10,664 nucleotides of DNA from a virus (taxonomy: Duplodnaviria; Heunggongvirae; Uroviricota; Caudoviricetes), in IMG/VR virus record IMGVR_UViG_2667527789_000015; one strand, 5' to 3'. Below, one piece after another: positions 1,313 to 10,664 of this stretch. The notes beneath the pieces are model-generated. The model worked only from the letters and a program-made list of their open reading frames with translations. It did no database searches and was not told where the DNA came from. Numbering within the stretch: the stretch's first letter is position 1; each line of letters begins with the position of its first letter. Position numbers and translations under genes: made by a program.

Positions 1313-3793
1313 ATGTTGAGAATGACCCCACTTGCATCAGCAATCGTAGCGTTATTGCTCGGCATTGAAGCTTATGCAGCTGAAGAAGCCTTTGATACCC
1401 ATTTTATGATAGGTGGAATGAAAGACCAGCAGGTTGCAAATATTCGTCTTGATGATAATCAACCCTTACCGGGGCAGTATGACATCGATATTTATGTCAA
1501 TAAGCAATGGCGCGGGAAATATGAGATTATTGTTAAAGACAACCCGCAAGAAACATGTTTATCAATAGAAGTTATCAAGCGGTTAGGCATTAATAGCGAT
1601 AACTTCGCCAGCGGTAAGCAATGTTTAACATTTGAGCAACTTGTTCAGGGTGGGAGCTATACCTGGGATATCGGGGTTTTTCGTCTCGATTTCAGTGTCC
1701 CGCAGGCCTGGGTGGAAGAACTGGAAAGTGGCTATGTTCCACCGGAAAACTGGGAGCGGGGTATTAATGCGTTTTATACCTCTTATTATGTGAGTCAGTA
1801 TTACAGTGACTATAAAGCGTCGGGTAATAGTAAGAGTACATATGTACGTTTTAACAGCGGGTTAAATTTACTGGGGTGGCAACTGCATTCTGATGCCAGT
1901 TTCAGTAAAACAAATAACAATCCAGGGGTGTGGAAAAGCAATACCCTGTATCTGGAACGTGGATTTGCCCAACTTCTCGGCACGCTTCGCGTGGGTGATA
2001 TGTACACATCAAGCGATATTTTTGATTCTGTTCGCTTCAGCGGTGTGCGGTTGTTTCGTGATATGCAGATGTTGCCTAACTCGAAACAAAATTTTACGCC
2101 ACGGGTGCAGGGGATTGCTCAGAGTAATGCGCTGGTAACTATTGAACAGAACGGTTTTGTGGTTTATCAGAAAGAGGTTCCTCCTGGCCCGTTCGCGATT
2201 GCAGATTTGCAGTTGGCCGGTGGTGGAGCAGATCTTGATGTCAGCGTGAAAGAGGCGGACGGCTCGGTAACCACCTATCTGGTGCCTTATGCAGCAGTGC
2301 CAAATATGCTGCAACCCGGCGTATCGAAATATGATTTTGCGGCGGGTCGTAGCCATATTGAAGGGGCGAGCAAACAAAGTGATTTTGTCCAGGCGGGTTA
2401 TCAGTATGGTTTTAATAATTTATTGACGCTGTATGGTGGCTCGATGGTCGCGAATAATTATTACGCGTTTACTTTGGGGACTGGCTGGAATACACGCATT
2501 GGTGCCATTTCCGTCGATGCCACGAAGTCGCATAGTAAACAAGACAACGGCGATGTGTTTGACGGGCAAAGTTATCAAATTGCCTACAACAAATTTGTGA
2601 GCCAAACGTCGACGCGTTTTGGTCTGGCGGCCTGGCGTTATTCATCGCGTGATTACCGGACATTTAATGATCACGTTTGGGCAAACAATAAAGATAATTA
2701 TCGCCGTGATGAAAACGATGTCTATGACATTGCCGATTATTACCAGAACGATTTTGGCCGTAAAAATAGCTTCTCTGCCAATATGAGCCAGTCATTGCCA
2801 GAAGGCTGGGGGTCTGTGTCCTTAAGTACGTTATGGCGAGATTACTGGGGGCGTAGCGGCAGCAGTAAGGATTATCAGTTGAGTTATTCCAATAACTGGC
2901 GGCGGATAAGCTATATCCTCGCGGCAAGCCAGGCGTATGACGAGAATCATCATGAAGAGAAACGTTTTAATATTTTTATATCGATTCCCTTTGATTGGGG
3001 TGATGACGTTACGACGCCTCGTCGGCAAATATATATGTCTAACTCAACGACGTTTGATGATCAGGGGTTTGCCTCAAATAATACGGGATTATCAGGAACC
3101 GTTGGAAGCCGGGATCAGTTTAACTATGGGGTCAACCTGAGTTATCAGAATCAGGGAAATGAAACGACAGCTGGGGCGAATTTGACCTGGAACGCGCCGG
3201 TTGCGACAGTGAATGGCAGTTATAGTCAGTCGAGTACTTATCGACAGGCTGGAGCCAGTGTTTCAGGGGGCATTGTCGCCTGGTCGGGGGGCGTTAATCT
3301 GGCGAACCGTCTTTCAGAAACGTTTGCTGTGATGAATGCGCCAGGAATTAAAGATGCTTATGTCAATGGGCAAAAATATCGCACAACAAACCGTAATGGA
3401 GTGGTGGTATACGACGGAATGACACCTTATCGGGAAAATCACCTGATGCTGGATGTGTCGCAAAGCGATAGCGAAGCAGAATTACGTGGCAACCGGAAAA
3501 TTGCCGCCCCTTATCGCGGCGCGGTTGTACTGGTTAATTTTGATACCGATCAGCGCAAGCCCTGGTTTATAAAAGCGTTAAGAGCGGATGGGCAACCATT
3601 AATGTTTGGTTATGAAGTCAATGATATCCATGGTCATAATATTGGCGTTGTCGGTCAGGGAAGCCAGTTATTTATTCGCACCAATGAAGTACCGCCATCG
3701 GTTAATGTAGCAATTGATAAGCAACAAGGACTTTCATGCACAATCACCTTCGGTAAAGAGATTGATGAAAGTAGAAACTATATTTGCCAGTAA
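1313..3793 (+). CDS. yehB: Outer-membrane fimbrial usher (FimD/PapC family), YehB-like
   Basis: About 826-aa ORF with a signal peptide (MLRMTPLASAIVALLLGIEAYA), a long beta-barrel-like Tyr/Asn/Ser/Gly-rich body and a C-terminal Cys pair typical of ushers. ATG at 1313 is preceded by AGGAG at 1302-1306; the ORF-track start at 1298 is a TTG immediately after the chaperone stop and is less likely. Confidence 0.88.
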   Translation: MLRMTPLASAIVALLLGIEAYAAEEAFDTHFMIGGMKDQQVANIRLDDNQPLPGQYDIDIYVNKQWRGKYEIIVKDNPQETCLSIEVIKRLGINSDNFASGKQCLTFEQLVQGGSYTWDIGVFRLDFSVPQAWVEELESGYVPPENWERGINAFYTSYYVSQYYSDYKASGNSKSTYVRFNSGLNLLGWQLHSDASFSKTNNNPGVWKSNTLYLERGFAQLLGTLRVGDMYTSSDIFDSVRFSGVRLFRDMQMLPNSKQNFTPRVQGIAQSNALVTIEQNGFVVYQKEVPPGPFAIADLQLAGGGADLDVSVKEADGSVTTYLVPYAAVPNMLQPGVSKYDFAAGRSHIEGASKQSDFVQAGYQYGFNNLLTLYGGSMVANNYYAFTLGTGWNTRIGAISVDATKSHSKQDNGDVFDGQSYQIAYNKFVSQTSTRFGLAAWRYSSRDYRTFNDHVWANNKDNYRRDENDVYDIADYYQNDFGRKNSFSANMSQSLPEGWGSVSLSTLWRDYWGRSGSSKDYQLSYSNNWRRISYILAASQAYDENHHEEKRFNIFISIPFDWGDDVTTPRRQIYMSNSTTFDDQGFASNNTGLSGTVGSRDQFNYGVNLSYQNQGNETTAGANLTWNAPVATVNGSYSQSSTYRQAGASVSGGIVAWSGGVNLANRLSETFAVMNAPGIKDAYVNGQKYRTTNRNGVVVYDGMTPYRENHLMLDVSQSDSEAELRGNRKIAAPYRGAVVLVNFDTDQRKPWFIKALRADGQPLMFGYEVNDIHGHNIGVVGQGSQLFIRTNEVPPSVNVAIDKQQGLSCTITFGKEIDESRNYICQ

Positions 3794-3806
3794 TAGTCAG
3801 GTGGTT

Positions 3807-4841
3807 ATGAATATTCGTATAATGTTATTTATAGTAATGATGATGGTTATGCCTGTGAGCTATGCGGCATGTTATAGTGAGTTATCTGTTCAGCACAATT
3901 TGGTTGTTCAGGGGGATTTTGCACTTACTCAAACACAAATGGCGACATATGAGCATAATTTTAATGATTCGTCATGCGTGAGTACAAATACTATCACCCC
4001 TATGAGCCCGTCGGATATTATTGTTGGACTTTATAACGATACCATTAAATTAAATTTACATTTTGAATGGACCAATAAAAACAACATCACGTTATCAAAT
4101 AATCAGACCAGTTTCACCAGTGGTTATTCGGTAACGGTGACACCTGCGGCCAGTAATGCAAAAGTGAATGTTTCTGCGGGGGGCGGCGGTTCAGTGATGA
4201 TTAATGGAGTTGCGACATTATCCAGTGCTTCATCATCGACACGCGGGAGTGCCGCAGTACAATTTCTACTGTGTTTATTAGGTGGCAAGTCATGGGATGC
4301 ATGTGTAAATAGCTACAGAAATGCATTGGCACAAAATGCAGGTGTCTATTCCTTTAATCTGACATTGTCATACAACCCGATAACCACAACCTGCAAACCG
4401 GACGATTTATTAATTACTTTAGACAGTATTCCCGTTTCACAATTACCAGCCACAGGTAACAAAGCAACAATAAATAGTAAACAAGGGGATATTATTCTGC
4501 GTTGTAAAAATTTATTAGGTCAACAAAATCAAACATCACGGAAAATGCAGGTGTATTTATCAAGTTCTGACTTGTTAACCAACAGCAACACAATACTGAA
4601 AGGTGCGGAAGATAATGGCGTAGGATTTATTCTTGAAAGTAATGGTTCGTCAGTCACACTTTTAAATATCACTAACAGCAGTAAAGGATACACAAATTTA
4701 AAAGAAATTGCGGCAAAGTCAAAACTTACAGATACAACGGTTTCAATTCCGATAACTGCCAGTTACTACGTCTACGATACAAACAAAGTTAAATCTGGCG
4801 CACTGGAGGCAACCGCATTAATCAACGTGAAATACGACTAA
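3807..4841 (+). CDS. yehA: Fimbrial tip/adhesin-like subunit, YehA-like
   Basis: ORF in the last operon position with a signal peptide (MNIRIMLFIVMMMVMPVSYA) and a Ser/Thr/Asn-rich mature region with several Cys. The ATG at 3807 gives 344 aa; the upstream part of ORF-track 3714..4841 overlaps the usher 3' end and is probably not translated. Confidence 0.75.
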   Translation: MNIRIMLFIVMMMVMPVSYAACYSELSVQHNLVVQGDFALTQTQMATYEHNFNDSSCVSTNTITPMSPSDIIVGLYNDTIKLNLHFEWTNKNNITLSNNQTSFTSGYSVTVTPAASNAKVNVSAGGGGSVMINGVATLSSASSSTRGSAAVQFLLCLLGGKSWDACVNSYRNALAQNAGVYSFNLTLSYNPITTTCKPDDLLITLDSIPVSQLPATGNKATINSKQGDIILRCKNLLGQQNQTSRKMQVYLSSSDLLTNSNTILKGAEDNGVGFILESNGSSVTLLNITNSSKGYTNLKEIAAKSKLTDTTVSIPITASYYVYDTNKVKSGALEATALINVKYD

Positions 4842-4897: not shown

Positions 4898-4924
4898 CCC
4901 CCTCATGATGAGGGGGCTTTTTTT
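4898..4924 (+). terminator. Rho-independent terminator after the fimbrial operon
   Basis: Seen directly: near-perfect palindrome CCCCCTCAT-G-ATGAGGGGG at 4898-4916, followed by C and a 7-T run at 4918-4924. The T run overlaps the rcnB stop codon on the opposite strand. Confidence 0.65.
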
Positions 4925-5261
4925 AGCGATGATAAAAAATCTCACCGTCGTAGGCTTTAATGATTTTACCGTCGGTGTCGCTGATCAACACGTACGCGCC
5001 ACCCATATAGGTCCAGTGCGTCCCGGCATCAGGCGCGGGCAGGTTACGTAACTGCCACTGCTTAATGTTGTACTCATCGGTGCGGTACATCTCTGGGACG
5101 GTATCGCCTGGTTTGAAATGCTTAAAGTCAGCAATGAAACTGCTTAACTCATACTTAGAAATTCCCGAGGTATTGGTCGAACCCGCGGTGGCTGGTGCGG
5201 CCCAGGCGGCACTGGTAACCAGCAAAAGCGCACCCAGCAACATCTTATTTTTAATGGTCAT
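4923..5261 (-). CDS. rcnB: Periplasmic nickel/cobalt homeostasis protein RcnB (YohN-like)
   Basis: Minus-strand ORF. The internal Met at 5261 gives 112 aa with a signal peptide (MTIKNKMLLGALLLVTSAAWAAP) and a GGAGAG Shine-Dalgarno just upstream. The position next to rcnA matches the rcnAB operon. The longer ORF-track start at 5441 has no signal peptide and is probably artefactual. Confidence 0.8.
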   Translation of the reverse strand: MTIKNKMLLGALLLVTSAAWAAPATAGSTNTSGISKYELSSFIADFKHFKPGDTVPEMYRTDEYNIKQWQLRNLPAPDAGTHWTYMGGAYVLISDTDGKIIKAYDGEIFYHR

Positions 5262-5376
5262 AAACTCTCCACTTTGGGGATCTGTAATATCAGTCGCATA
5301 TCTTTCCTGCCATACAATATAACTGACAAGCGATATTTTGTTAGTGATCCCATGATTTCGTAAAAAGTGTAAATGA

Positions 5377-5399
5377 AAGGATGCCCTAAAAGCATCCTT
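5377..5399 (-). other. Intercistronic stem-loop between rcnA and rcnB (AAGGATGC-N7-GCATCCTT)
   Basis: Seen directly: 8-bp inverted repeat with a 7-nt loop in the 218-bp rcnA-rcnB spacer. Could be an mRNA processing or stability element or a partial terminator; function not determinable from sequence. Confidence 0.3.
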
Positions 5400-5479
5400 A
5401 GCGAGCAGAGAGTCAGCGGAAATAGCTGATTTAAGAATCATCCTGGGCTGAAGATAACATGCAAGCCTAAAGGATTGAG

Positions 5480-6304
5480 TTATCGCATTATGCCCATGAA
5501 GCCATGTACGCCCATATACACACCGACTAAGCCAATCAACAGACTGGAAAAATAGGGGGCGCGTTTAGCGAGAGTGTTAAATCCGCTCCAGCGTTTTGCG
5601 ACCTGCTGAACGCTGATTGCTGCGCCAACGCCTACGGTGATAAGCGTTAACGCCAGGCCAATGCTGAAACTGACGACCAGTGTTGCGCCCAGTGTCAGGG
5701 CTTTCAACTGAATGCATATCAACAGCACGGTAATTGCTGCCGGGCAGGGGATAAGGCCACCGGTTAAGCCAAATAACAAAATTTGCCAGTTGGTGACCTC
5801 TCTACCATCAAAGCGTCGTTTAATGTCATTGGCATGGGCTCGTGCATGGGCATCCTGATACTCGACATGTTCGTGATGGTGATGATGTCCATGGTCGTGG
5901 TGATCTTCGTGATCGTGGTGATGATGTTCATGATCATACTCGTGCATATTCTCCAGCCAGTTGCGTTCGCCGCGCCAGGTACGCCAGAACATCCAGAACG
6001 CGGTGCCAATAATGATCACTGCGGAAATCAGCTGGAGCCACGGTTCTGCTGATTGAGCAGTAAAGCGCTTGCTGATCACCATCCCGCCAAAGGCAATTAA
6101 CCAGACCACTGCGGTATGCGAAATAGTTGCTGCCAGTCCGAGCATCACCGCTTGTTTAATGGTGCCTTTGATGGCGATGATAAACGCCGCCATCATCGTT
6201 TTTGAGTGCCCTGGTTCCAGGCCATGAAGCGCACCAAGTAAGATGGCGCTGGGGATGAAGAACCAGGCGTTTCCTTGCTGAAGAAGAGTTGTAAATTCGG
6301 TCAT
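5480..6304 (-). CDS. rcnA: Nickel/cobalt efflux permease RcnA
   Basis: 274-aa membrane protein with multiple hydrophobic segments and the characteristic histidine-rich cytoplasmic loop (HEYDHEHHHHDHEDHHDHGHHHHHEH). N-terminus MTEFTTLLQQGNAWFF matches RcnA as I recall it. Confidence 0.9.
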   Translation of the reverse strand: MTEFTTLLQQGNAWFFIPSAILLGALHGLEPGHSKTMMAAFIIAIKGTIKQAVMLGLAATISHTAVVWLIAFGGMVISKRFTAQSAEPWLQLISAVIIIGTAFWMFWRTWRGERNWLENMHEYDHEHHHHDHEDHHDHGHHHHHEHVEYQDAHARAHANDIKRRFDGREVTNWQILLFGLTGGLIPCPAAITVLLICIQLKALTLGATLVVSFSIGLALTLITVGVGAAISVQQVAKRWSGFNTLAKRAPYFSSLLIGLVGVYMGVHGFMGIMR

Positions 6305-6376: not shown

Positions 6377-6424
6377 GATTAATAGTGCTATGATTTTTCA
6401 TATTCTTGTTAACAAGGTGTTGCC

Positions 6425-6697
6425 ATGTCTCATACAATCCGTGATAAACAGAAACTGAAAGCGCGTGCCAGTAAGATTCAGGGCCAGGTCGTGGCGCTCA
6501 AGAAAATGCTCGACGAGCCGCACGAATGCGCTGCAGTTTTACAACAGATTGCTGCTATCCGTGGCGCGGTAAACGGTCTGATGCGGGAAGTGATTAAAGG
6601 TCATCTGACGGAACACATCGTTCACCAGGGGGATGAGCTAAAACGTGAAGAAGATCTGGATGTCGTTCTGAAGGTGCTGGATTCATATATCAAATAA
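6425..6697 (+). CDS. rcnR: Ni/Co-responsive transcriptional repressor RcnR (CsoR/RcnR family)
   Basis: 90-aa ORF beginning [22 protein letters not shown] with the His/Cys metal-binding residues of the family (H3, C35, H60, H64 pattern). Transcribed divergently from rcnA with operators in between. Confidence 0.9.
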
Positions 6698-6783
6698 TTT
6701 ATTAACGCGATTGTAAAACTGCCGTTTTTCCTCGTTTACAACGCGTGCGCTGGACATTACCATCCTCCTCTGCGATTTATCAT

Positions 6784-6838
6784 CGCAACCAAACGACTCG
6801 GGGTGCCCTTCTGCGTGAAGGCTGAGAAATACCCGTAT
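6784..6838 (+). promoter_or_regulatory. Truncated 5' portion of the thiM TPP riboswitch (THI-box) aptamer
   Basis: Sequence AACCAAACGACTCGGGGTGCCCTTCUGCGTGAAGGCTGAGAAATACCCGTAT matches the 5' half (P1 5' strand, P2, P3, CUGAGA motif) of the E. coli thiM aptamer as I recall it. The native continuation (CACCTGATCTGGATAATGCCAGCGTAGGGAA, P4/P5) is absent; the sequence after 6838 is unrelated. Confidence 0.6.
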
Positions 6839-6932
6839 TTTCTCATTTAGTGTTTTTTGCGGTTCGGGGGTGTTCGTGGTTGTTTGTGTATGTATTTGAT
6901 ATTAAATGAATTATTCTGTTTTCTTGTTTGTT

Positions 6933-6990
6933 GTTGTTCGTCGTTGTTCGTAGAGCTTCAACAAAATGTGTGGTCAGTTGTGTGGTCAGT
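6933..6990 (+). repeat. Short direct repeats upstream of the integrase gene; candidate integrase arm-type binding sites
   Basis: Seen directly: GTTGTTCGT at 6933-6941 and 6943-6951, and a perfect tandem TGTGTGGTCAGT at 6967-6978 and 6979-6990, lying between the junction and the integrase start. Confidence 0.4.
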
Positions 6991-7026
6991 TTTTTGAGGC
7001 TGGAGGACTGAAAAGAGGATCTGATA

Positions 7027-8247
7027 GTGGGAAAAGCACTAAACAAACTGAGCGATTCGACGTTAAAAAAATTGGCGGCTGTCCAGGCAGAAAAAGAGCG
7101 TTTTTACTCCGACGGGGGCGGGCTGGAGATTAAACACTCAAAAGGCGGCAAATTAACCTGGTATTTTCGGTACCGAACGGGAGGCCGTGAGGTCGCCGCA
7201 GAGCGGTTAAAGCTGGGGGCTTACCCTGAGCTGTCGCTGAAAGCTGCTAGGGAAAAACGCACACAGTGCCGGTCATGGCTGGCTGAGGGTAAAAATCCCC
7301 GTTATGAGTTGTGCGCCACAGTACAGGAAGCATTAAAACCCGTTACGGTGAAGGAGGCGATTAACTACTGGCTGGAGGAATACGCGAAGGATAATCGCAA
7401 AGACTACATAAAACTGGTGCAACGTATGGATAAGCACATCATTTGCCATATAGGGGCAATCCCTCTTGATAAATGCGATACAAGGCAGTGGATCGCATGT
7501 TTTGACCGTGTACGAAAAAAAGCACCAGTAGCAGCAGGGCACGTCATGCAAACCTGCAAACAGGCGCTAAAGTTCTGCCGCAGGAGGCGCTACGCGTTCA
7601 GTAATGCCCTGGACGATTTGATCGTCAGCGATGTGGGTAAGAGAGCAGAAATTCGCGAGAGGGTACACAGTAACAGCGAATTAAAGGAAATTTTACGCGC
7701 TATCGATGGTGATGTGTTCGCGCCTTACTACAGCACGTTAATGCGCTTGCTGATTGTGTTCGGGTGCAGAACGGCAGAGGTCAGACTTTCAGAGATCAAA
7801 GAATGGGATCTGAAAGAAATGTTGTGGACAGTGCCAAAAGAGCACAGCAAAACGAAGGTAACGATATTCAGGCCAATCCCCGATGGCATTTTGCCGTTCA
7901 TTCAGAAGCTGGTGGAGCAGAACCGACATACAGGGTTATTGCTCGGAGAACTGAAAAAAGATACCACGGTAGCGCAATATGGGCGAAATGCGCATAAGCG
8001 GCTTAACCAGGAACACTGGACGCTGCATGACTTTCGCCACACGTTTACAACGATGCTGAACGATTTAGGTATCGATCCGCATATCGTGGAGCACATCACA
8101 GCGCATCAGATGCCCGGTCAGCAAAAAACCTATAACCATTCACGCTATTTACAGGCGAAACGGGACGCTCTGAATCTATGGGTTGAGCGTCTCGATGTGC
8201 TGGCTGGAAATCATGAAAATATTGTTATGCTGAAGGTGGCTAAATGA
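7027..8247 (+). CDS. int: Tyrosine site-specific integrase, P4-type (phage integrase family)
   Basis: 406-aa ORF with a GTG start and AAGAGG 10 nt upstream. N-terminal arm-binding-like region (LKKLAAV...GGGLEIKHSKGGKLTWYFRYR) and C-terminal catalytic signatures (FGCRTAEV box I Arg, HDFRHTF H-x-x-R, KTYNHSRY Tyr region) typical of tyrosine recombinases. Confidence 0.9.
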   Translation: MGKALNKLSDSTLKKLAAVQAEKERFYSDGGGLEIKHSKGGKLTWYFRYRTGGREVAAERLKLGAYPELSLKAAREKRTQCRSWLAEGKNPRYELCATVQEALKPVTVKEAINYWLEEYAKDNRKDYIKLVQRMDKHIICHIGAIPLDKCDTRQWIACFDRVRKKAPVAAGHVMQTCKQALKFCRRRRYAFSNALDDLIVSDVGKRAEIRERVHSNSELKEILRAIDGDVFAPYYSTLMRLLIVFGCRTAEVRLSEIKEWDLKEMLWTVPKEHSKTKVTIFRPIPDGILPFIQKLVEQNRHTGLLLGELKKDTTVAQYGRNAHKRLNQEHWTLHDFRHTFTTMLNDLGIDPHIVEHITAHQMPGQQKTYNHSRYLQAKRDALNLWVERLDVLAGNHENIVMLKVAK

Positions 8248-9038
8248 AAGATTTTCCTCGTATATATTATACTTTGCCTATGGCAGCAAAAAAACTCGGC
8301 TGCACGGTGGATGATATTCTACATCTTGGGGCAACCAATAGACTTGAAATATGTGCATATATTGGTGAAAACGACTTATTAATAAGTGAGAATAAGTGCT
8401 CTGCTAGAGTGATTTTTGAAGATGATAGCGAAAGTTATTATGTTGAACAGATAAAAGAACGAAATGTAATAGATAGTGATATGTATAAGATATCTTATCT
8501 TCATTACAATGATGATTATGTTGAGGATACCGACACAGGGATATTCAGACTGCCAGGTTGGTATGCAAATTATTTAAAGGGTTTTTTTGCAATTCCGTCG
8601 CAGTATCTTGTGGATGTTGAATTATCAGGTCCGCACAATGCTGTTGACGTCAAACCACAACATCTTTACACCATAAAAGCACATTACAAAAAGCTATATT
8701 TAGCTGGAATTTGGGGGTTGTTTATTCCGGAGGAAAGATTAGTCGTTTTCGAAAATGAACTTTCGAATTTTGATTATGCGGCAAAACCTGTATATGGCGG
8801 AGGTGATAGAGAATCTCCGAAAACCATAGCTAAAAAAGCCGAGATAATACCTGCACTCATAAAACTGATTCCTGAGATGCAGGATGTGGATTTGGAGGAG
8901 ACACCAGTAACCAAAATTGCAGAAATGATAGAGGTTATCGCTGCGCAAAGAGGGGTTGAGCTACCCAGCACTCACAGGCAGACATGGCAGAAATATTTGG
9001 GGCGTGATATTGGTGACGTTCCGAAACGTCAAAAGTGA
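8244..9038 (+). CDS. Hypothetical 264-aa protein, AT-rich cargo gene; N-terminus resembles an excisionase/MerR-type HTH, C-terminal domain unknown
   Basis: ATG at 8244 overlaps the integrase TGA (ATGA, 8244-8247) with AGGTGG upstream, indicating translational coupling. Composition is visibly more AT-rich than the flanking integrase. N-terminal TLPMAAKKLGCTVDDILHLGATNRLEI resembles HTH_17/excisionase helix-turn-helix patterns by eye; no catalytic motif recognised in the rest. Confidence 0.65.
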   Translation: MKDFPRIYYTLPMAAKKLGCTVDDILHLGATNRLEICAYIGENDLLISENKCSARVIFEDDSESYYVEQIKERNVIDSDMYKISYLHYNDDYVEDTDTGIFRLPGWYANYLKGFFAIPSQYLVDVELSGPHNAVDVKPQHLYTIKAHYKKLYLAGIWGLFIPEERLVVFENELSNFDYAAKPVYGGGDRESPKTIAKKAEIIPALIKLIPEMQDVDLEETPVTKIAEMIEVIAAQRGVELPSTHRQTWQKYLGRDIGDVPKRQK

Positions 9039-9066
9039 TATCACGTACCGATAGTGTGATATCACA
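9034..9066. promoter_or_regulatory. Pair of perfect 10-bp palindromes GTGATATCAC (12-bp with flanks), centres 21 bp apart; putative operator
   Basis: Seen directly: GTGATATCAC at 9035-9044 (overlapping the ORF264 TGA stop) and at 9056-9065. Two helical turns between centres is typical of dimeric HTH repressor operators. Confidence 0.5.
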
Positions 9067-9094
9067 CAAACGGCGTTTTACCACCGTCTAGAAT

Positions 9095-9129
9095 CGTCCT
9101 CGTTCGGCAACGTTCGAGGACGTTTTTTT
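9095..9129 (+). terminator. Hairpin plus T7 run; intrinsic terminator after int-ORF264 and/or leader attenuator of the AlpA-family gene
   Basis: Seen directly: CGTCCTCG at 9095-9102 pairs with CGAGGACG at 9115-9122 (8 bp, 12-nt loop), then TTTTTTT at 9123-9129 immediately before the ATG at 9130. The GAGGA at 9117-9121 that would serve as the alpA Shine-Dalgarno lies in the 3' arm of the stem. Confidence 0.5.
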
Positions 9130-9354
9130 ATGAATCAAAATACACAATTTCAATCACTATCAGATCGCGTAATCCGTGAGGATGAATGTCGTAAGTTAAC
9201 TGGAGTATGTCGTACTACACGCTACGAACTGGAGAAAAAAGGGCGATTTCCGTCACGCCTTAATCTGGGCGGTCGTTCTGTAGGTTGGCTGCTGTCCGAG
9301 GTTATGGAATGGGTTAAAAGCCGGGATCGCATTAATTCAGGTAAGGCAGCGTAA
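9130..9354 (+). CDS. alpA: AlpA-family phage transcriptional regulator / excisionase-like DNA-binding protein
   Basis: 74-aa ORF with the family pattern: basic region, HTH (LTGVCRTTRYELEKKGRFPSRLNLGGRSVGW) and acidic/W tail (SEVMEWV). Position just downstream of a P4-type integrase is typical. Confidence 0.75.
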   Translation: MNQNTQFQSLSDRVIREDECRKLTGVCRTTRYELEKKGRFPSRLNLGGRSVGWLLSEVMEWVKSRDRINSGKAA

Positions 9355-9367
9355 AGGGGAGCATATG

Positions 9368-9401
9368 ACACATAAAACAAAGGCGACCGGGGGCGGTCGC
9401 C
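9368..9401 (-). terminator. Hairpin GGCGACCG-GGGG-CGGTCGCC with T-rich tail on the minus strand; terminator for the minus-strand gene 9490..9792
   Basis: Seen directly: perfect 8-bp GC-rich inverted repeat at 9382-9401; on the minus strand it is followed by TTGTTTTAT (complement of 9373-9381). Confidence 0.45.
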
Positions 9402-9489
9402 AATGGGAAAACACTAAACATAAGCCCGAACATCATAGCGATTTGCTGGCTGGTGGGCAATGTGATCAGTGTGGTGGTTTGCTGGTGGA

Positions 9490-9792
9490 TTATTCCGCTT
9501 CTTTGGCCTTGCGACGCTGGAGTTCTTCGCGTGCAACGGTGACAAGTTGCCCGATTTCTTCCGCTGCTTTGATGCCGATTTGTTCGACCTTAGCCAGAGC
9601 ATCCAGTGAAGACACAAGGGGATTTTCTCCGCTGCCTTCTGCCTGGCGGCGTGCTATTTCTCCGCGCATGGCGGTTACGATAAATCCTGCATTGCTCTCG
9701 CCGTCCAGCTTAACGGATTCCATGCCTTGCATGACATCGTGAGGGACTCTGAGCGTTGTCATTTGAGATTTTGCGTTTTTGTATACGGACAT
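9490..9792 (-). CDS. Hypothetical ribbon-helix-helix-like DNA-binding protein (putative repressor), 100 aa
   Basis: Minus-strand ORF with a plausible protein composition. Residues 12-45 (TTLRVPHDVMQGMESVKLDGESNAGFIVTAMRGEIARR) fit the beta-strand/helix/helix pattern of Arc/CopG-type RHH domains by eye. Divergently transcribed from a repeat-rich promoter region. The overlapping plus-strand ORF 9365..9742 looks like a Ser/Ala-rich shadow frame. Confidence 0.55.
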   Translation of the reverse strand: MSVYKNAKSQMTTLRVPHDVMQGMESVKLDGESNAGFIVTAMRGEIARRQAEGSGENPLVSSLDALAKVEQIGIKAAEEIGQLVTVAREELQRRKAKEAE

Positions 9793-9810
9793 AATTAATC
9801 ACCAGTTTAT

Positions 9811-9913
9811 TGTGTGTATATCACTATACAGTAAAGTGAGATATAAAAAAACTTGAAATGTATATCACATCAATGTAACGTGTATCTCACATGATGATTA
9901 TGTGTATCTCATG
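9811..9913. repeat. Array of GTGTAT(A/C)TCAC repeats (four direct, one inverted) in the divergent promoter region
   Basis: Seen directly: GTGTATATCAC 9814-9824, GTATATCACAT 9860-9870, GTGTATCTCAC 9880-9890, GTGTATCTCAT 9902-9912, and the inverted copy GTGAGATATA 9836-9845. Spacing of about 21-22 bp between the last three. They share the TATCAC half-site with the palindromes at 9035-9065. Confidence 0.5.
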
Positions 9914-9989
9914 TACGAAAAGACGAAACCCCGCAGTGCTGGAACACATACGGGGCTTCTAACCACAAACACTATAGAGAGGTAAATTT

Positions 9990-10184
9990 ATGGTTGCCGT
10001 AAATCATACTCCACGACTAGCACACACACAAACGGCCTTTGTGTGGCGTTTTCTGGCCCTGAGTGCCGGAGAATCTCAAATCATCCACGTAACCGCCTGG
10101 ACGGAACGCGAAGCGCGTAACCGTTGCCCGTCCGGTTGTGTTGCTGTATTTGCCGCCCGTATTCGCCAGGGGGTAGGCTTATGA
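9990..10184 (+). CDS. Small protein resembling Icd-like host cell division inhibitors (P1 Icd / P4 Kil type)
   Basis: 64-aa ORF with GAGAGG Shine-Dalgarno 8 nt upstream. Sequence pattern (HTPRLAHTQTAFVWRFLAL...TEREARNR...VAVFAARIRQG) resembles, from memory, Icd-like proteins annotated in P4-like elements. First gene of the rightward operon. Confidence 0.5.
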   Translation: MVAVNHTPRLAHTQTAFVWRFLALSAGESQIIHVTAWTEREARNRCPSGCVAVFAARIRQGVGL

Positions 10185-10414
10185 GCCAGGAAATCACACT
10201 ACAACAGGCAGCAGAACGCGCCCACCAAATCGAAGTTATTTGCGCACTGGCAGAGGATTACCCTGGCATGATGACCGACAGCGAATCAGGGGCAATCATC
10301 GGCTTACTTAAACGCCTTAGCGGTGAGGTCTGCGTATTCCTGAGCGATGAACAGGAAAGAAGAACGCTTATTTCTAACGAAAAAAAATGCGGAGGGGTAC
10401 ACCATGTGCAATAA
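10181..10414 (+). CDS. Hypothetical small protein (77 aa), translationally coupled to the preceding ORF
   Basis: ATG at 10181 overlaps the upstream TGA (ATGA at 10181-10184). The longer ORF-track start at 10124 lies inside the previous gene. No recognisable family. Confidence 0.45.
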   Translation: MSQEITLQQAAERAHQIEVICALAEDYPGMMTDSESGAIIGLLKRLSGEVCVFLSDEQERRTLISNEKKCGGVHHVQ

Positions 10415-10664
10415 CATCCGTCCGGACGCAACCGCCGCCGCGCTCACTACGCTGATGCTCGCGCTTATTGATATTTCTGTTATTGCTGACATGGCGCATA
10501 AGCACGCCACCAGTGAAACAGAATATGCAGGGGCTGTCGTTCCTCATTCGCTGGCGGTTATGCAACTTAGTGCGGATATGGCGCTGAATGAGGCCAAAGC
10601 CATCCTGATTGCTGATTGTGAAAATGGGGGGGGGTTATGCGTGATGATCGTTTTAATTCCCTGA
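10404..10664 (+). CDS. Hypothetical small protein (86 aa) with a hydrophobic central segment
   Basis: ATG at 10404 with a strong GGAGGGG Shine-Dalgarno at 10391-10397; overlaps the previous ORF by 11 nt. Stop TGA is the last codon of the window. The ORF-track start at 10347 is upstream of the Shine-Dalgarno and less likely. Confidence 0.45.
   Translation: MCNNIRPDATAAALTTLMLALIDISVIADMAHKHATSETEYAGAVVPHSLAVMQLSADMALNEAKAILIADCENGGGLCVMIVLIP

Follow-up and report, generated by a model that had tools for sequence, protein, structure and literature searches.

A phage satellite attachment site inside the thiM thiamine pyrophosphate riboswitch of Escherichia coli

Introduction

What becomes of a riboswitch when a mobile element uses it as an attachment site? 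Integrases favour tRNA and tmRNA genes because these are conserved; P4, for example, integrates at leuX, and CP4-57 at ssrA. The locus examined here lies on a stretch of 10,664 nucleotides from the virus record IMGVR_UViG_2667527789_000015 (IMG/VR), referred to throughout as the window, which runs from chromosomal genes into the leader of thiM and from there into an integrase gene. The original prediction, made from the letters alone, was that an integrative element is inserted inside the thiamine pyrophosphate (TPP) aptamer of thiM, and it raised the question of whether the riboswitch is intact at the far junction. The answer given by related genomes is that integration destroys the aptamer and does not regenerate it, and that a functional aptamer is present at neither junction. 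The explanation developed below is very probable as a whole: the window contains the left junction (attL) of a phage satellite of the PICI family, capsid-forming and about 15 kb long in its closest relatives.

The left junction

Ahead of the thiM leader, the window carries yehD-yehA, rcnB and rcnA (minus strand), and rcnR. The last of these is named 'frmR' in the 2018 PICI table (PMC6092414, Table S1). The features around the junction are as follows.

6425 to 6697, plus strand: rcnR, chromosomal flank upstream of the thiM leader, so annotated in every matching E. coli genome
6735 to 6763, plus strand: sigma-70-like promoter TTTACA-17-TACCAT, the probable native thiM promoter
6789 to 6838, plus strand: 5' half of the thiM TPP aptamer, identical to K-12 (L001, 1890-1939) and placed by the Rfam structure lines
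6825 to 6838, plus strand: att core AGAAATACCCGTAT, a 14-bp direct repeat at both element ends, from alignments of attL, attR and attB
6839 to 7026, plus strand: P' arm of the att site, conserved in all attL junctions compared, Salmonella included, with presumed arm-type integrase binding repeats
6924 to 6994, plus strand: 71-bp block with a second copy in the right-end P arm, in direct orientation and with 4 mismatches in 71
7027 to 8247, plus strand: tyrosine integrase of 406 aa, with a GTG start and a GAGGA ribosome-binding site 8 nt upstream

In a megablast search of 5426 complete E. coli genomes, K-12-type genomes match window positions 6400-6838 with 99.8% identity, and the alignment ends at exactly 6838, a base that we take to be U54 of the aptamer. 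The empty site of K-12 reads ...GGCTGAGAAATACCCGTAT followed by CACCTGATCTGG... (read further, GGCTGAGAAATACCCGTAT followed by CACCTGATCTGGATAATGCCAGCGTAGGGAAGTC), and the window at the same place reads ...GGCTGAGAAATACCCGTAT followed by TTTCTCATTTAGTG...; 6838 is the last K-12-like base, and the DNA from 6839 onwards is foreign. The breakpoint inside the aptamer, after ...ACCCGUAU, was to be fixed by just such an alignment, and the earlier description of 6784-6838 as the 5' half of the riboswitch, followed by abrupt divergence, proves accurate to the nucleotide. What remains at 6789-6838 is the pyrimidine-sensor arm: the 5' strand of P1, P2, P3, the CUGAGA of J3-2, the 3' strand of P2, and the GUAU of J2-4.

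Covariance searches agree with a broken aptamer. The gathering cut-off of the Rfam TPP family (RF00059) is 54.3 bits, and the empty site of K-12 (attB) scores 71.2 bits. A search of the whole window returned no Rfam family at gathering score; at permissive thresholds TPP is placed at 6789-6894 with 19.9 bits (E = 0.15), below the cut-off, and only the 5' part of this alignment is convincing (5' strand of P1, P2, P3, CUGAGA and ACCC). Such a partial match near 6838, with no full-length aptamer, had been expected. P4/P5 and the closing helix P1 are not completed here; element DNA follows 6838, and P4/P5 are found at attR in the relatives. A cryptic aptamer at attL, as the nominally 'full-length' alignment might suggest, was considered and rejected, its 3' portion consisting of a 38-nt unaligned insert and G-U-rich chance pairing.

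There are no tRNA or tmRNA genes within the window. The thiM riboswitch is contiguous in 5338 of 5425 E. coli genomes (87 are without it), which provides the empty-site counterparts that an insertion calls for and excludes chance as the source of the junction.

The right junction and the fate of the aptamer

As the window ends at 10664, inside the element, its own right junction has to be read from relatives. The nearest genome is that of strain S19-141, with 98.8% identity over 94% of window positions 6700-10664; no database genome is identical. The right end was studied in four related occupied genomes (L002, L005, L006 and L007), and in each of them it reads ...AAATTAGTAAGAAATACCCGTAT followed by CACCTGATCTGG..., then the native expression platform, thiM and thiD. 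The anticipated layout of the far end, a direct repeat of the core (AGAAATACCCGTAT) followed by the 3' half of the aptamer and thiM, is found in all four.

On the Rfam structure line, the core spans the last bases of the J3-2 CUGAGA, the 3' strand of P2 (ACCC) and J2-4 (GUAU); these are presumably aptamer nucleotides A41-U54. In the numbering of the crystal structures of Serganov and of Edwards, both from 2006, G40, G42 and A43 reportedly form the pyrimidine sensor and G60, C77 and G78 the pyrophosphate sensor. Since only 14 bp of the target are carried by the element, the aptamer is cut between its two sensor arms.

One might expect the far junction to regenerate the riboswitch, as islands that target tRNA genes do with theirs; thiM would then keep its TPP control, and integration would be regulatorily silent. 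Regeneration is what DUF4102 integrases usually bring about at tRNA genes, and an unrelated island family at this very locus does keep two aptamer copies (see below). At the right junction of L002, the one that was scored, there is nevertheless only the 3' half of the aptamer, with 34.6 bits against the cut-off of 54.3; AU-rich element DNA stands in place of P1, P2 and P3, and CUGAGA has become GUAAGA. The same attR sequence occurs in the other three occupied genomes, the shared core is just 14 bp, and the PGAP annotation of L002, L005, L006 and L007 has no riboswitch at this position. With the 3' half alone at attR and no annotated riboswitch in these four relatives, the riboswitch is split, not regenerated, and its two halves lie either side of elements of ~11-15.6 kb. 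For the relatives examined, a regenerated riboswitch is refuted by this half-aptamer below the Rfam cut-off, and silent integration is almost certainly not what happens with this element. The question posed about the far junction is thereby answered in the negative.

The integrase and its attachment arms

Between 6838 and the start of int lie 188 nt of repeat-rich DNA on the same strand, including tandem TGTGTGGTCAGT at 6967-6990 as well as repeats of the GTTGTTCGT type. The tandem TGTGTGGTCAGT is present in each copy of the 71-bp block, and the blocks in the two arms are, judging by their sequence, likely arm-type sites for the N-terminal domain of the integrase. An ORF of 67 aa with a TTG start (6843-7046, minus strand) overlaps the repeats of the P' arm; it is probably not a gene.

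The integrase has the architecture foreseen for a P4-type enzyme, namely Arm-DNA-bind_3 (PF13356, 65.5 bits) and Phage_integrase (PF00589, 61 bits), and matches phrog_1 (integrase). Candidate catalytic motifs in its translation are GCRTAE, HDFRH, TAH and KTY, the R/H-R/H/Y residues being assigned by eye only. An E. coli cluster with 588 member sequences shares 98% identity with it. Identity to integrases in the phage collection is 51% at most, and ~31% to those of phi80 and Stx phages; a scan of contigs with the integrase protein gave 26 pattern stretches, none of which was confirmed by tblastn. The closest integrase in the phage collection (51% identity) belongs to LR881103.1 (Escherichia phage vB_KppS-Ant, 16,548 bp, 'induced prophage'), which, going by its size, may be a capsid-forming PICI deposited as a phage.

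The nearest relatives of this integrase subclade (67% identity) adjoin either a LysR-family regulator gene or a cold-shock-domain gene, and their sites appear to be the published lysR-smrA and cspD-clpS PICI sites (PMC6092414, Table S1). As this related clade uses other non-tRNA intergenic PICI sites, the integrase subfamily targets short conserved non-tRNA sites generally. The initial premise, a usual preference of this integrase family for tRNA or tmRNA genes, thus holds for P4-like DUF4102 enzymes in general, but not for this subclade.

Gene content and satellite class

Downstream of int, the window contains the following genes of the element.

8244 to 9038, plus strand: 264-aa accessory protein in the variable slot between int and alpA, function not assigned by any match
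9130 to 9354, plus strand: AlpA-family regulator/excisionase (PF05930, 60.1 bits; phrog_2790), the hallmark regulator of Gram-negative PICIs
9490 to 9792, minus strand: YlcI/YnfO-family small protein (phrog_6522), with the same annotation in relatives
9990 to 10184, plus strand: Icd-like cell-division inhibitor or repressor-like protein (phrog_1743, phrog_29966), annotated in relatives, at the start of the regulatory/replication module

With int at its left end and AlpA in a unidirectional layout that runs rightward from there, the element is arranged as PMC6092414 describes for PICIs. In sister elements the int-alpA slot is occupied by a DUF6387 protein (e.g. L006, 17545-18399); neither this nor the 264-aa protein has a PADLOC, Pfam or PHROG match, and the slot may hold accessory or anti-phage cargo.

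The complete elements of S19-141, JNEC-KY202 and SMS-3-5 measure 15.2-15.6 kb. Their cargo includes a primase or RepA (helicase), SSB, PerC (in two of the three), major capsid protein, HK97 protease, portal, head-closure/connector proteins, HNH, TerS and TerL; tail and lysis genes are absent from all three. The SMS-3-5 element had been flagged 'PICI? HNH; terL' in Table S2 of PMC6092414, and the architecture of capsid-forming PICIs has been described in PMC10085698 and bioRxiv 10.1101/2025.02.11.637232. It is seen in three of the four occupied relatives (L002, L005 and L006). In the fourth, OSUCMP42NDM (L007), this int/att module sits on an element of 11 kb that has a replication module too but another capsid module, which indicates an integration module common to mosaic satellites. 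Consistent with mosaicism, at least 80% of a right-end query from JNEC-KY202 was matched in only 5 genomes, and the left junction occurs in 72-76. Some relatives have frameshifted or partial genes.

Distribution and mobility

The attL junction of this satellite is present in ~76 of 5426 complete E. coli genomes. In practical terms, where the thiM riboswitch is 'missing', as in ~1.5% of E. coli genomes, the usual cause is an integrated satellite, and not an error of assembly or annotation. Integrases with 71-76% identity are found in Salmonella at the same nucleotide of the Salmonella thiM aptamer, downstream of yeh fimbrial genes and rcnB, with an upstream flank that differs from that of E. 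coli. A 17-mer around the core, CTGAGAAATACCCGTAT, lies within TPP aptamers of many genera of Enterobacterales, including Enterobacter, Pantoea, Serratia, Erwinia, Edwardsiella, Yersinia, Hafnia and Brenneria. The spread of this 17-mer fits the idea that the constraints of ligand binding probably keep the attachment sequence invariant across genera, and the shared core may explain why one satellite attachment site works in both Escherichia and Salmonella.

The excised element would be expected to carry the attP sequence …TTAGTAAGAAATACCCGTATTTTCTCATT…. Exact searches found no such junction in IMG/VR or in JGI metagenome contigs, and a shorter 19-mer probe of both returned only some ten Escherichia-type attL junctions besides chance matches. 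Together with the frameshifted or partial genes of some relatives, this absence from viral and metagenome collections could mean that the junction did not come from active site-specific integration, but is an old rearrangement or a remnant that has decayed and become fixed. Several observations make such a history very unlikely. The integrase ORF is intact; the junctions are nucleotide-identical in a capsid-forming PICI and in an 11-kb PICI, and again in Salmonella at 71-76% integrase identity; and occupancy is sporadic (76 of 5426 genomes) against a background of abundant empty sites. Identical junctions in mosaic elements and in Salmonella, along with this sporadic occupancy, point to repeated independent integrations, and the same features of the intact int and its sites indirectly support present-day mobility. 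For Gram-negative PICIs as a group, the section of Fillol-Salom 2018 (PMC6092414) that deals with mobility gives excision and circularisation amplicons as well as integration of int-attPI plasmids, the tested elements being left unnamed there.

Proposed mechanism of integration

In the model favoured here, the DUF4102-type tyrosine integrase recombined the 14-bp core AGAAATACCCGTAT of the satellite with the identical sequence in the DNA of the thiM aptamer. The integrase would read double-stranded DNA; an aptamer that is near-invariant across Enterobacterales could then serve as a stable attachment site shared between genera. Integration leaves the pyrimidine-sensor arm and the presumed native promoter at attL, facing int, and places the pyrophosphate-sensor arm, the expression platform and thiMD at attR, ~15 kb away as in the relatives. 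At attR, where the 5' strand of P1 is gone, the anti-anti-SD would be free to pair with the anti-SD, leaving thiM ON and TPP-blind, with thiMD transcripts supplied by read-through or by a weak promoter in the right arm. Transcription of int in the integrated state may, in turn, draw in part on the native thiM promoter.

Consequences for the expression of thiMD and int

The promoter at 6735-6763 is the only promoter-like site in 6600-7150, and it now faces through attL and the P' arm to int, with no terminator-like site between the two.

In the published model of thiM regulation (PMC2018614), the anti-anti-SD comprises nucleotides 83-86, the anti-SD 108-111, and the SD 126-129, and the 5' strand of P1 must pair in order to free the anti-SD for the SD. 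All three elements lie 3' of the break and are kept at attR; the 5' strand of P1 is left at attL. The ON-state helix (GCGUAGGGAAG with CUUCUUCACG) is present in every fold of the attR leader, for several 5' ends. The first three SD bases are unpaired with a probability of ~0.4-0.95, the highest values (~0.65-0.95) being obtained for leaders that start <=60 nt from the core. These folds and the loss of the P1 5' strand suggest that translation of thiM is constitutively permitted and TPP-insensitive. By thermodynamic folding and the published model, thiMD is hence predicted to be TPP-blind and translationally locked ON, but without its native promoter.

Where transcription would come from is less obvious. 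The right arm has no outward sigma-70 match of >=9 of 12 positions, only weak ones of 7-8 of 12, and no plus-strand terminator. With the native promoter left at attL and no strong one in the right arm, transcription of thiMD probably relies on read-through from the rightward satellite operon or on a weak promoter in the arm. A harsher outcome would be that integration silences thiMD, the native promoter being lost and unreplaced, and that lysogens depend on external thiamine. The presumed native promoter does stay at attL, the conserved right arm has no convincing outward promoter, and in L002 the annotated gene nearest to attR on the element side runs the other way. Yet the annotation shows thiM and thiD as intact genes at each of the four occupied loci, which speaks against a relaxation of selection, and ThiD is needed for de novo thiamine synthesis; no plus-strand terminator-like site separates the rightward satellite operon from thiM, and the attR leader is predicted to be translationally open. 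Silencing is therefore possible but rather unlikely. Expression that continues without TPP control is the preferred reading, and it would make the locus a natural test case in which carriage of a mobile element is predicted to rewire the feedback of a vitamin cofactor.

A second integrase family at the same aptamer

The satellite described so far (class A) is not the only element associated with this riboswitch. In E. coli GPEC1035 (L004, 12269-20097), a 7.7-kb island lies between rcnR and thiM, with its int directly downstream of the left aptamer copy. The island is flanked by two aptamer copies (61.3 and 67.2 bits), both above the Rfam cut-off. The segment shared by the junctions of this class B is ~82 bp and ends near GCGUAGGG; the break falls close to GCGUAG(GG), within the aptamer's 3' part. 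As the island carries ~82 bp of the aptamer, both of its junctions keep an aptamer that passes the Rfam threshold.

The class B integrase (435 aa) has PF00589 only and no BLASTP match to the integrase of the window; together with the left aptamer copy it is found in 123 of 5426 E. coli genomes. Homologues in Enterobacter, Pantoea and Mangrovibacter share 58-90% identity among themselves, and a TPP aptamer copy precedes them at a distance of 100-150 nt; they, too, have no BLASTP match to the integrase of the window. That two unrelated integrase lineages converge on the same 80-nt aptamer, with different crossover positions, is the strongest argument that the choice of the riboswitch is not accidental. 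Further class B loci, each with a tyrosine recombinase of 430-460 aa, are L038, L041, L042, L055, L096, L105 and L115. One subgroup has an inverted repeat, TGGATAATGCCAG..CTGGCGATTATCCA, after the aptamer copy; in another, pairing of CUCUUUUUG with CAAAAAGGG could mask the SD of the integrase.

Other inserts occur at or near the locus. A break at window position 6695 in O157:H7 genomes was considered as the same element and dismissed; it is an unrelated insert upstream of an intact riboswitch. In O157:H7 strain 2149 (L003, 20299-22571), this insert of ~2.2 kb lies between rcnR and the intact thiM riboswitch. The final gene of the insert, WP_000141034 (240 nt), seems to correspond to WP_000141032 at the right end of the GPEC1035 island, going by position, length and adjacent accession numbers and not by alignment, and the insert as a whole could be what is left of a decayed island of that family. 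In some O157 strains the class A satellite is also present in the riboswitch (matches H210-H213).

In Brenneria populi (L035, ~3654-4823) and in L107 (~4902-6071), AT-rich DNA interrupts the TPP aptamer after GGATAAT, in the P5 loop; next comes a 292-aa protein of unknown function, and no integrase adjoins. These loci may represent a third type of insertion at this aptamer. In species representatives of Pantoea and Enterobacter (L051, L090, L092 and L096), aptamer copies give way to unrelated sequence right after GCGTAGG(G), and L090 has two copies 1.3 kb apart, which suggests more insertions or remnants at this position.

Taken to its widest, the case would be that the thiMD TPP riboswitch serves several unrelated integrase lineages throughout Enterobacterales as a general hotspot of integration, much as tRNA genes do, and that regulatory consequences follow: in class A, TPP-blind thiMD and an int behind the thiM promoter, and in class B, a complete aptamer leading the island's own integrase. 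This generalisation is doubtful. If it were true, the integration state of the satellite would be coupled to the host's expression of thiamine salvage in class A, and expression of the class B integrase could respond to TPP. A metabolite-sensing mRNA aptamer does, at this locus, take the part of a conserved target, otherwise known from tRNA and tmRNA genes, for at least two unrelated integrase families, one of which destroys the sensor.

Comparison with known systems

Use of this attachment site is already known. Table S1 of Fillol-Salom et al. (2018, ISME J; PMC6092414) lists the PICI EcCI224 of E. coli Ecol_224 (CP018948.1:1961620-1972242, 10.6 kb) with the att core AGAAATACCCGTAT and the att gene 'frmR-thiM', and the core derived here from junction alignments equals the published one. 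EcCI224 also shares with the window element the rcnR-thiM locus, the AlpA regulator, the unidirectional layout, and an int/att module with ~92% DNA identity over the int region (match H219). It differs in being a classical 10.6-kb PICI, as opposed to the 15-kb capsid-forming relatives of the window element, and in having another gene in the int-alpA slot.

The location of the site within the TPP aptamer appears to have gone unremarked in searchable papers. The word 'riboswitch' does not occur in PMC6092414 or its supplements, and literature searches (thiM/PICI, rcnR/thiM/integrase, riboswitch/attachment site) found no paper that describes a riboswitch as an att site. The view that such a site would be unusual accordingly needs qualifying; the att core is published, and what seems unreported is that it lies in a riboswitch. 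What is new, and extends known biology, is that the att site is the ligand-binding core of the thiM riboswitch, that the sensor is destroyed on integration, and that the aptamer also serves a second integrase family.

A site within another structured RNA has been described for phage phiEf11; according to the part of PMC12540744 that concerns this site, its attB lies in ffs (4.5S RNA), so that the core att site is likewise inside a structured RNA that is not a tRNA. Host and integrase are different, and the target there is an RNA gene and not a riboswitch.

With regard to satellite class, L002, L005 and L006 resemble capsid-forming PICIs in their modules (integrase, AlpA, primase/RepA, capsid, protease, portal, connectors, HNH, TerS and TerL) and in their size of ~15 kb. 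The replication and morphogenesis modules lie beyond the window end at 10664, and the membership of the window element in this class is drawn from these relatives.

The class B islands use the same aptamer and likewise have int after the left copy; they duplicate the aptamer, whereas the window element splits it, and the crossover position is different. The closest parallel in mechanism is that of the P4-type (DUF4102) integrases of tRNA and tmRNA genes. These share the PF13356 and PF00589 architecture, an int that abuts attL, arm-type repeats on both sides of a short core, and a target that encodes a highly conserved structured RNA. The difference lies in the fate of that target: a tRNA or tmRNA gene is regenerated, whereas here a cis-regulatory mRNA aptamer is destroyed.
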